Translations under genes and position numbers: made by a program
Origin: Escherichia coli
Lineage (GTDB): Bacteria > Pseudomonadota > Gammaproteobacteria > Enterobacterales > Enterobacteriaceae
Length of the DNA: 64,000 bases
Strand: one strand, 5' to 3'
Assembly (NCBI RefSeq): GCF_003334335.1
Contig: NZ_QOWQ01000010.1
Notes under the pieces: model-generated
Databases searched by the model: none
What the model was told of the DNA's origin: nothing
The model's input: the letters and a program-made list of their open reading frames with translations, nothing else
Shown: positions 18,342-19,318 of the stretch, piece after piece
Position numbering within the stretch: position 1 is the first letter of the stretch
Layout of the letters: every line of letters begins with the position of its first letter

Positions 18342-19318
18342 GAGTGGGTTCCGTACTCTTTGTTTAGTGTGATTGTGACAGGCGTTTCACCGCCGTCTGT
18401 AAAGCGTATGCCCCGACAGCTGTATGCATAGCGATAAATTCCAGCAGGCCGGGACGCCGGTCTATTTTGCCCCAGAGTGTCAATGTTAGACTTGACGGAC
18501 ATTGTGCAGCGATCTGCTGCTATCCTCCGGCAAAAAACAAAATATACCTTCGTTGCGCCAATGTCACCTTTTCCGCAGCGCAAAAACTGCGTCAGGGAGG
18601 ACGAGGTCGCACATTATAACGATTTCGTAGCAATTGGCAGCTAAATACTGGTCTTATCAGGGAAGATAATCAACAGCTAACATGTAAATAACCTTCAACA
18701 CCGTGTAATTTGCAACAAGCCGCACAATTCACGAAATTAGCGCCATCATCGACGGAACTTCTTATAACGTAAGGTGAAAAGCTGAAAAGCCAGCCCTGCG
18801 AAGATGAGGGGCTGCAATGAGATAATCTTCACAGACCACAAATAATGTAGGGATGCCAGGATCGCGACAAGATAGACGACATTACGCAGCGGTTGCTGGG
18901 GATTACCCAATTTTCACTGCATCGTCTGGATAGATGTGAATGCTAAAGCACGCAAAATTAACCGATTGACAATGCTCAGCATTAAATAGGTTCGAGTGAT
19001 TAATTTGTAGTCAAACAAAATCAGATTATTCACCCCATGGTACCAGAAATAAGTAAGGGGCTAAGCGTAGCGTCGCCCAGGCAAAGCACCATAAACCTAA
19101 CAGGCGACGGAGGCGTATCAATAATAGCTGTTTAGTGGAGTATCAATGCGCATCAATTTGTGGTCAGTCGAAATCATGACTTTCCAGTTTGGATGATGTT
19201 GTATAACTTCCTGACCAAGGTGTTCGACGAAAGCTGTCCGGCTAACCGCTTTTCCCGTTAACCGATTGAATAATGATTTCAAAATGAGTTCCCTCTCTTA
19301 TTATTCCCTGCTAAATGG

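Follow-up and report, generated by a model that had tools for sequence, protein, structure and literature searches.

Almost 1 kb of DNA separates acuI from accB in Escherichia coli, immediately upstream of an essential operon, and it holds no convincing open reading frame. What, then, fills this space? We addressed the question in a stretch of 64,000 nucleotides from the E. coli contig NZ_QOWQ01000010.1, which is referred to as the window throughout and whose first letter is position 1. The original prediction, made from the letters alone, had offered an unannotated small RNA, a small protein, a decayed gene remnant or extended regulatory DNA. Decay turned out to be the right choice, and three remnants were found: the stub of a DUF1444-like gene, a copy of msrQ and what is left of aroQ. 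With a probability of about 90%, the gap is a mosaic of these three dead genes around one live control region and has no function as a unit.

Layout of the gap and its annotated pseudogenes

The gap covers positions 18342-19318 (977 bp), between the end of acuI (19319-20293) and the start of accB (17871-18341), with accC (16511-17860) beyond. The window is reversed relative to the K-12 map, and acuI, accB and accC, like all the features of the gap described below, are on the minus strand, with acuI upstream of accB and pointing the same way. The supposition that the flanking genes diverge does not hold; the divergent pair is acuI and csrD (20445-22385, plus strand). The lack of a convincing reading frame was confirmed: the longest ORF overlapping the gap (18314-18583, minus strand) encodes 89 aa and, as had been pointed out, crosses the accB start. 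The GC content of 41-51% agrees with the moderate value given for it, and meaningful repeats are absent, as had been noted: the direct repeats are two, both short and each in two copies, and the single inverted repeat is weak.

Nor is the region unannotated. The window differs from MG1655 by 2 mismatches over 6.8 kb, only one of which, at 19089, falls in the gap, and NC_000913.3 annotates two pseudogenes there, yrdF (b4697) and yrdE (b4646), both named as pseudogenes in a J. Bacteriol. paper. These K-12 reference pseudogenes already account for the upstream 537 bp of the gap.

The spacer of 36 bp that follows the acuI stop codon (19283-19318), as read from the sequence, carries an SD-like GAGGG 5′ of a TTG at 19282. 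In the O26:H11 strain 11368 this TTG is the start codon of a 276-aa gene, here called gene X, and yrdF (NC_000913.3 3404495-3404637, window 19282-19140) corresponds, by K-12 annotation and homology, to its first 47 codons, with 96% amino acid identity to the intact O26 protein over its residues 1-48. The yrdF frame stays open to 19118, giving an ORF of 54 aa (19282-19118) composed of the yrdF stub and seven out-of-context codons. By blastn, the window DNA matches O26 and E. albertii up to precisely position 19140; past this point, 856 bp of gene X are swapped in the window for 101 bp, the 5′ part of yrdE. Gene X is intact in E. albertii, with 93% amino acid identity to the O26 version, and the 856-bp segment is present in 670 of 5426 complete E. 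coli genomes (12%). The O26 protein matched DUF1444 (PF07285) with an i-E of 0.0063 and 16.5 bits over model positions 15-254 of 264, and the NCBIfam model PRK13668 with E=5e-5 and 23 bits against a cut-off of 221, and PHROGs gave no match for gene X; on these profile scores it may at best be a distant DUF1444 relative. Its homologues are few, and some are found on plasmid-like contigs together with KfrA and Aca2 genes. A resemblance between the MsrQ C-terminal LRSLFNRL and the gene X N-terminal LKSLFNRL (tblastn E=0.19) was considered as a junction and discarded, the underlying DNA being identical at only 16 of 24 positions and the best local DNA alignment doing no better than shuffled sequences.

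The adjoining yrdE (NC_000913.3 3404638-3405031, window 19139-18746) is labelled by PGAP in other strains as a ‘sulfoxide reductase heme-binding subunit YedZ’ or ‘cytochrome b family protein’ pseudogene, with the remarks frameshifted, internal stop and N-terminus missing. Its conceptual translation matched the MsrQ model NF003831 (E=4e-23, profile positions 77-193 of 212) with 82 bits, below the curated cut-off of 130. The alignment with K-12 msrQ gave 77% nucleotide identity over 382 nt, from codon ~69 to codons ~196-199, and 63 of 93 aligned residues of the protein are identical (68%). The N-terminal ~68 codons are missing, the frame is shifted near 19040 and interrupted at 18916-18914 by an in-frame TGA in place of an Arg codon of MsrQ, and an uninterrupted ORF of about 200-211 aa is not present; yrdE is unable to make a functional protein. 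Its 5′ part (19038-19139, msrQ codons ~69-100), as delimited by blastn breakpoints and the msrQ alignment, is the portion characteristic of the K-12-type haplotype. A tblastn search of the gap with MsrP found no trace of msrP (best E=3.7). Between the yrdE stop codon and the promoter described below lies a spacer of 71 bp (18675-18745), not conserved between genera, which holds a neutral insertion site at 18705/18706.

The accBC promoter and the aroQ remnant in its leader

A promoter scan identified CTGCCA-16-TATAAT, with the -35 hexamer at 18640-18635, the -10 hexamer at 18618-18613 and 10 of 12 matches, within a block of about 68 bp (18607-18674) that hardly varies across 52 Enterobacterales loci, from E. 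coli to Proteus. A published start-site map obtained by SMRT-Cappable-seq reports an accB|accC operon transcript (b3255|b3256) at 3405172-3407310 under two conditions (PMC6131387, supplementary file 3); its 5′ end, NC_000913.3:3405172, falls at window position 18605, 8 nt after the -10 hexamer, and defines a leader of 264 nt. The roughly 300 bp originally allowed for promoter and leader came close, the promoter block adding about 70 bp to the leader. The available part of the Cappable-seq supplement of PMC4782308 has no entries for the locus. With correctly spaced hexamers and a mapped cap-enriched 5′ end, the sigma-70 promoter at 18640-18613 is active. From 18200 to 19500, no terminator-like site, meaning a GC-rich hairpin followed by a U tract, was detected. 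A conserved GTGACA-17-TATTTT is present further downstream, at 18567-18539.

The promoter block also contains a FadR-box-like CTGATAAGACCAGTA at 18660-18646. The FadR operator is a 17-bp site resembling ANCTGGTCCGACCTGTT, and the candidate operator CCCTGATAAGACCAGTA (18662-18646) has 11 of 17 positions in common with the fadB and fabA sites. Direct control of accBC by FadR is reported in a second-hand citation, and this, together with the resemblance of the sequences, points to a putative FadR box in the promoter block.

The msrQ-accB intergenic regions of 24 genera were aligned. Most of these contain a 150-aa ORF between the conserved promoter block and accB, which in Enterobacter is a true AroQ, the type II 3-dehydroquinate dehydratase (TIGR01088, 209 bits), and both this alignment and a larger one of 53 loci place AroQ directly upstream of accB and behind the shared promoter. 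In place of about 710 bp, this interval measures about 400 bp in E. coli, E. albertii, Citrobacter and Superficieibacter. In the window, promoter, 5′UTR and aroQ codons 1-7 align with Kluyvera as one block (82% identity over 211 nt, E=1e-59), in which the ancestral aroQ 5′UTR occupies 18503-18604, the first 102 nt of the accBC leader, and the remnant start codon with codons 1-7 (ATGTCCGTCAAGTCTAACATT) occupies 18482-18502. A second block, 97% identical to Kluyvera over 72 nt (E=5e-32), is formed by the last 15 aroQ codons and the stop codon (18364-18411), with 14 of 15 residues identical to Enterobacter and Kluyvera AroQ (tblastn E=3e-6), and by the ancestral aroQ-accB intercistronic spacer of 22 nt (18342-18363), which includes the accB ribosome-binding region and whose GAGTACGGAAYC is nearly invariant across the 53 loci. 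The stretch between the two blastn blocks, defined against Kluyvera and Enterobacter, is about 70 nt long (18412-18481) and does not align with intact aroQ; it takes the place of about 385 nt of the aroQ reading frame, which leaves the locus about 314 bp shorter. This filler is 97.8% identical to E. albertii, and we assume that it derives from aroQ.

Nothing like the full-length domain of about 140-150 aa is left, only codons 1-7 and the last 15 being recognizable, and the translations of the remnants matched no family. The ancestral aroQ Shine-Dalgarno sequence GGAG has become GCAG in E. coli and GAAG in Citrobacter. On these alignments, the long E. coli accBC leader is a gutted aroQ, the first gene of the ancestral operon; its 264 nt are made up of the aroQ 5′UTR, codons 1-7, about 70 nt of filler, the final 15 codons down to the stop, and the spacer on which the accB ribosome-binding site lies. 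E. coli uses the type I enzyme AroD, which makes aroQ redundant, and the redundant gene would have lost its ~314 internal bp. The remnant carries no annotation in K-12 or in the sampled PGAP records, and our literature search found no description of an aroQ remnant upstream of E. coli accB, which is not proof of novelty.

Ancestral gene order and proposed deletions

Using AccB as a probe, we retrieved 80 species-representative loci. The order csrD← acuI→ msrP→ msrQ→ ... accB recurs in about 45 Enterobacterales genera, including Citrobacter, Enterobacter, Kluyvera, Erwinia, Pantoea, Serratia, Yersinia, Pectobacterium, Hafnia, Edwardsiella and Budvicia, and the ancestral Enterobacterales order was csrD← acuI→ msrP→ msrQ→ [promoter] aroQ→ accB→ accC. 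The functional msrPQ genes of E. coli are at the hprRS-hiuH locus. Since the msrPQ genes of the Citrobacter acuI locus share 84-90% protein identity with them, the working E. coli copy would be a relocated orthologue, with yrdE still marking the original site. In a neighbor-joining tree, yrdE and K-12 msrQ clustered apart from Citrobacter msrQ (bootstrap 200/200), and the nucleotide identity of yrdE is 76% to K-12 msrQ versus 68% to Citrobacter msrQ.

The order and the number of the evolutionary events can be proposed as follows. A horizontally acquired DUF1444-like gene, gene X, would have inserted between acuI and msrP; a metagenome-derived contig (L087) with the order acuI - gene X (76% identity) - msrP shows the intermediate expected if this insertion preceded the msrPQ deletion. 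The msrPQ genes would have been duplicated to the hprRS-hiuH locus, now the site of the working copy, and the original copy destroyed by deletion in two different ways. In the K-12 type, loss of gene X from codon 48 to its end, of msrP and of msrQ codons 1-68 would have left yrdF and yrdE; in the O26/E. albertii type, gene X would have been kept and msrP with msrQ codons 1 to ~95 lost. Accordingly to the breakpoints of pairwise blastn, K-12-type strains keep msrQ codons 69-100 and lack gene X beyond the stub, and O26/E. albertii-type strains show the reverse; each haplotype retains what the other has lost, from which we infer separate deletions from a longer ancestor. E. albertii has the same junction as the O26 type, and the two-deletion model must therefore invoke a polymorphism already present in the ancestor or a recombination at a later time. 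The retrieved loci include none from E. fergusonii, E. marmotae or Salmonella, and the events can therefore not be dated. What these comparisons add to the K-12 annotation is the origin of both pseudogenes, yrdE as the decayed original-locus copy of msrQ and yrdF as the 5′ stub of a DUF1444-like gene.

Constraint on the locus, rival explanations and known counterparts

Sequence variation was uneven along the locus. Among nine K-12-type E. coli strains, the proportion of variable sites was 3.1% in acuI, 5.6% in yrdF, 11.8% in the 5′ part of yrdE and 8.6% in the rest of yrdE, and then 0% in the promoter, 1.0% in the 5′UTR, 0.6% in the aroQ remnant and 1.7% in accB. Across the 5426 complete E. 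coli genomes, the identity of the leader never drops below 99%, and in 531 of them a 292-nt stretch of yrdE is down to 90-95% identity. Compared with E. albertii, identity is 82% for yrdE, 98% for the aroQ remnant and 74% for acuI third codon positions. The higher variation and the divergence from E. albertii indicate that yrdF and yrdE behave as neutral DNA, and that promoter and leader are constrained by strong purifying selection.

This pattern bears directly on the alternatives to plain decay. That the 54-aa ORF is a functional small protein is improbable, even though it retains the SD-like GAGGG and the TTG start of gene X, lies under an acuI transcript that extends over yrdF/b4697 (SMRT-Cappable-seq, PMC6131387) and is called by PGAP in some strains as the hypothetical protein WP_000838293.1: it is a truncation of a 276-aa protein, no family was matched in the profile search, its 5.6% of variable sites among the nine strains exceeds that of acuI, and the K-12 curators class yrdF as a pseudogene. 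The stub, co-transcribed with acuI and yet a truncated, polymorphic fragment, would be a candidate, if an improbable one, for the small protein that had been suggested. A free-standing small RNA, for instance an E. coli homologue of the Yersinia Ysr190, is very unlikely. The permissive Rfam scan yielded only Ysr190 (RF02764) and one noise match, and no family reached its gathering score in the gap. In Yersinia and Serratia, matches to Ysr190 exceed the threshold at the corresponding place of the locus, on promoter and 5′UTR, and the E. coli match at 18539-18638, with 25.3 bits (E=0.1-0.5), remains far under the gathering threshold of 66. The first position of this match lies 33 nt before the mapped transcription start, and the -10 TATAAT is included in it, so that the match describes the operon promoter and 5′UTR; moreover, full-length transcripts run from 18605 through accC, and the gap has no terminator-like site. 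Ysr190 is probably the leader of the operon and not an independent sRNA gene.

The idea of extended regulatory DNA, in which the yrdE/yrdF stretch would be required for the expression of accBC or acuI, is hardly tenable. The stretch does lie upstream of an essential operon, and K-12 and Nissle have almost the same sequence in the 3′ half of yrdE; against this, a kan cassette inserted at 18705/18706 (yrdE-kan primers), 100 bp upstream of the transcription start, splits yrdE from the promoter and leaves growth and cell shape as in the wild-type. In addition, no segment of the locus is more polymorphic than yrdE, whose 82% identity to E. albertii is near neutral, the structure at yrdE/yrdF is different in 12% of strains, and one strain carries an IS1. 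The upstream 570 bp is highly polymorphic, and the geometry of divergent genes on which the proposal was built is wrong. A different matter is the leader itself, for which the constraint suggests that the aroQ-derived sequence may be needed in cis for normal accBC expression. It is possible, and we put it forward as a tentative reading, that the recycled aroQ leader was exapted and selected for a cis action on accBC, either as a regulatory RNA, with a site for AccB feedback or a target for an OmrA-type sRNA, or through an uORF of 62 codons, coupled to accB initiation, that delivers ribosomes to a weak accB start. This ORF runs from the former aroQ ATG at 18502 to a TGA at 18314, 27 nt inside accB, and in E. 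albertii its frame is kept open by two indels, one of -1 and one of +1, at a distance of 25 nt. Besides the near-identity of the leader in all genomes, E. coli and E. albertii have 98% identity in the aroQ remnant where the synonymous positions of the flanking genes are at 74-84%, and E. coli and Citrobacter, despite a dead aroQ in both, have 97% identity over the ~62 nt that directly precede accB. Autoregulation of the operon by AccB is reported, though AccB has no DNA-binding motif, and the accBC mRNA responds to OmrA. On the other side, the aroQ Shine-Dalgarno sequence is mutated in E. coli and Citrobacter, the Citrobacter ORF from the former aroQ ATG stops after 5-9 codons, and structure predictions gave no signal: the folding energy of the leader is unremarkable (z = -1.12), RNAalifold on 53 5′UTRs found no consensus structure, and over the 75 nt closest to accB it gave only 3 pairs, whose weak covariation is confounded by the coding constraint of aroQ. 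No paper linking accB with an uORF was found in the literature search, and the low diversity of the leader could be due in part to hitch-hiking with the highly conserved accB (1.7%) rather than to selection on the leader.

Gene decay around a live promoter, the reading we prefer, is mostly an ordinary finding: two of the three remnants are already annotated and no new kind of element is involved, the aroQ remnant and the relocation history of msrPQ being small additions to the known annotation. It shows that gene decay can account in full for a long ‘empty’ stretch between genes beside an essential operon, and it explains the oddly long accBC leader as the husk of aroQ. The near-invariance of its 264 nt in 5426 genomes and the paired indels of E. 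albertii are compatible with a cis-acting leader, and the conserved stretch 18364-18605 offers a small, concrete target for locating AccB autoregulation or sRNA control.

In comparison with known systems, the yrdE and yrdF described here are the same objects as those of K-12, with identical coordinates and a single base of difference (19089). As for MsrQ (YedZ), the heme-binding subunit of the periplasmic methionine sulfoxide reductase MsrPQ, yrdE occupies the place that msrQ has in other Enterobacterales, and it is unlike MsrQ in its ~68 missing codons, in the absence of msrP, in its frameshift and in-frame stop and in its low profile score. The match to Ysr190 (Yersinia sRNA 190) at 18539-18638 is the positional homologue of the Yersinia and Serratia matches, and in each of these species it overlaps both the -10 hexamer and the 5′UTR of aroQ/accBC. 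A further counterpart is the aroQ-accB-accC operon of other gamma-proteobacteria, with which E. coli has in common the promoter block, the 5′UTR, the position of the start codon, the 15 final codons up to and including the stop, and the 22-nt spacer; it differs in missing about 314 bp of a 453-bp aroQ and in its mutated Shine-Dalgarno sequence, and what was the first gene of the operon now serves only as a leader, either untranslated or, at most, bearing an uORF.

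Relocation of msrPQ and the origin of gene X

The functional msrPQ genes of E. coli, located in K-12 at the hiuH locus (L086:3479-5119), are the sequence orthologue of L007:4004-5608 and of about 45 other retrieved loci, and in other Enterobacterales these orthologues lie between acuI and aroQ-accB. In Escherichia msrPQ has been relocated beside hprRS-hiuH, and the old site is marked by the decayed msrQ copy yrdE (19139-18746). Photorhabdus and Xenorhabdus (L032, L035, L041 and L047) are without msrPQ and carry acuI directly 5′ of the promoter-aroQ-accB unit; it follows that msrPQ was lost from the acuI-aroQ site more than once.

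One enterobacterial contig assembled from a metagenome (L087:1005-2083) has the order acuI, gene X (76% identity) and msrP, a layout that appears to be intermediate between the ancestral one and that of E. coli; gene X is the 276-aa DUF1444-like gene of which pseudogene yrdF (19282-19140) is the 5′ stub. A 63% identical relative of gene X lies on a contig (L088:23-4731) next to KfrA_N, Aca2_YdiL and DUF7352 genes, a plasmid-like context which suggests that gene X came to Escherichia via a mobile element. The two pseudogenes share an exact 12-nt direct repeat, TTAACCGATTGA, at 18958-18969 in yrdE and 19258-19269 in yrdF; exact direct repeats of this length are expected by chance at about 0.03 per 1 kb, and both copies are away from the deletion junction.

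Structural variation at and around the gap

The gap between acuI and accB exists in two structurally different haplotypes, as seen by comparing 19038-19139 of the window with E. coli O26 (L003) and E. albertii (L006). The O26 type also occurs in E. albertii, which implies either that the polymorphism is old or that the locus has recombined between species. In one E. coli strain, 14EC017, an IS1A is inserted inside the gap (NZ_CP024134.1 507183-508936, hit H1), consistent with a dispensable upstream part. A further structural polymorphism adjoins the operon downstream of accC, where Nissle and O26 (L001, L003) have a gene of the aldose 1-epimerase family, encoded on the other strand, whereas K-12-type strains have yhdT-panF directly at this site.

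The aroQ-accBC leader and its conserved elements

The Rfam family Ysr190 ('Yersinia sRNA 190') maps to the conserved promoter and 5′-UTR of the aroQ-accBC operon, at 18539-18638 in the window and at L040:5380-5481, L042:5238-5339, L062:5380-5481 and L027:5379-5480 in other loci. The model includes the -10 TATAAT of the operon promoter, and Ysr190 is probably the operon leader and not a free-standing sRNA.

Within the leader, GTGACA-17-TATTTT (18539-18567, minus strand) is kept across 53 Enterobacterales loci with a variable spacer. This pattern of fixed hexamers is the one expected of a second promoter, and such a putative promoter would leave aroQ a 30-nt 5′-UTR; the SMRT-Cappable-seq table lists no start site for it. 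Further downstream, the aroQ remnant of E. albertii (L006:5860-5960, compared with 18400-18502) has lost one nucleotide and gained one 25 nt away, two changes that jointly leave the 62-codon ORF from the former aroQ ATG uninterrupted.

Immediately 5′ of the accB ATG, GAGTACGGAAYC (18345-18363, minus strand) is nearly unchanged in the 53 loci. Its conservation is far above the requirement of a Shine-Dalgarno sequence, and a protein or an sRNA may bind there.
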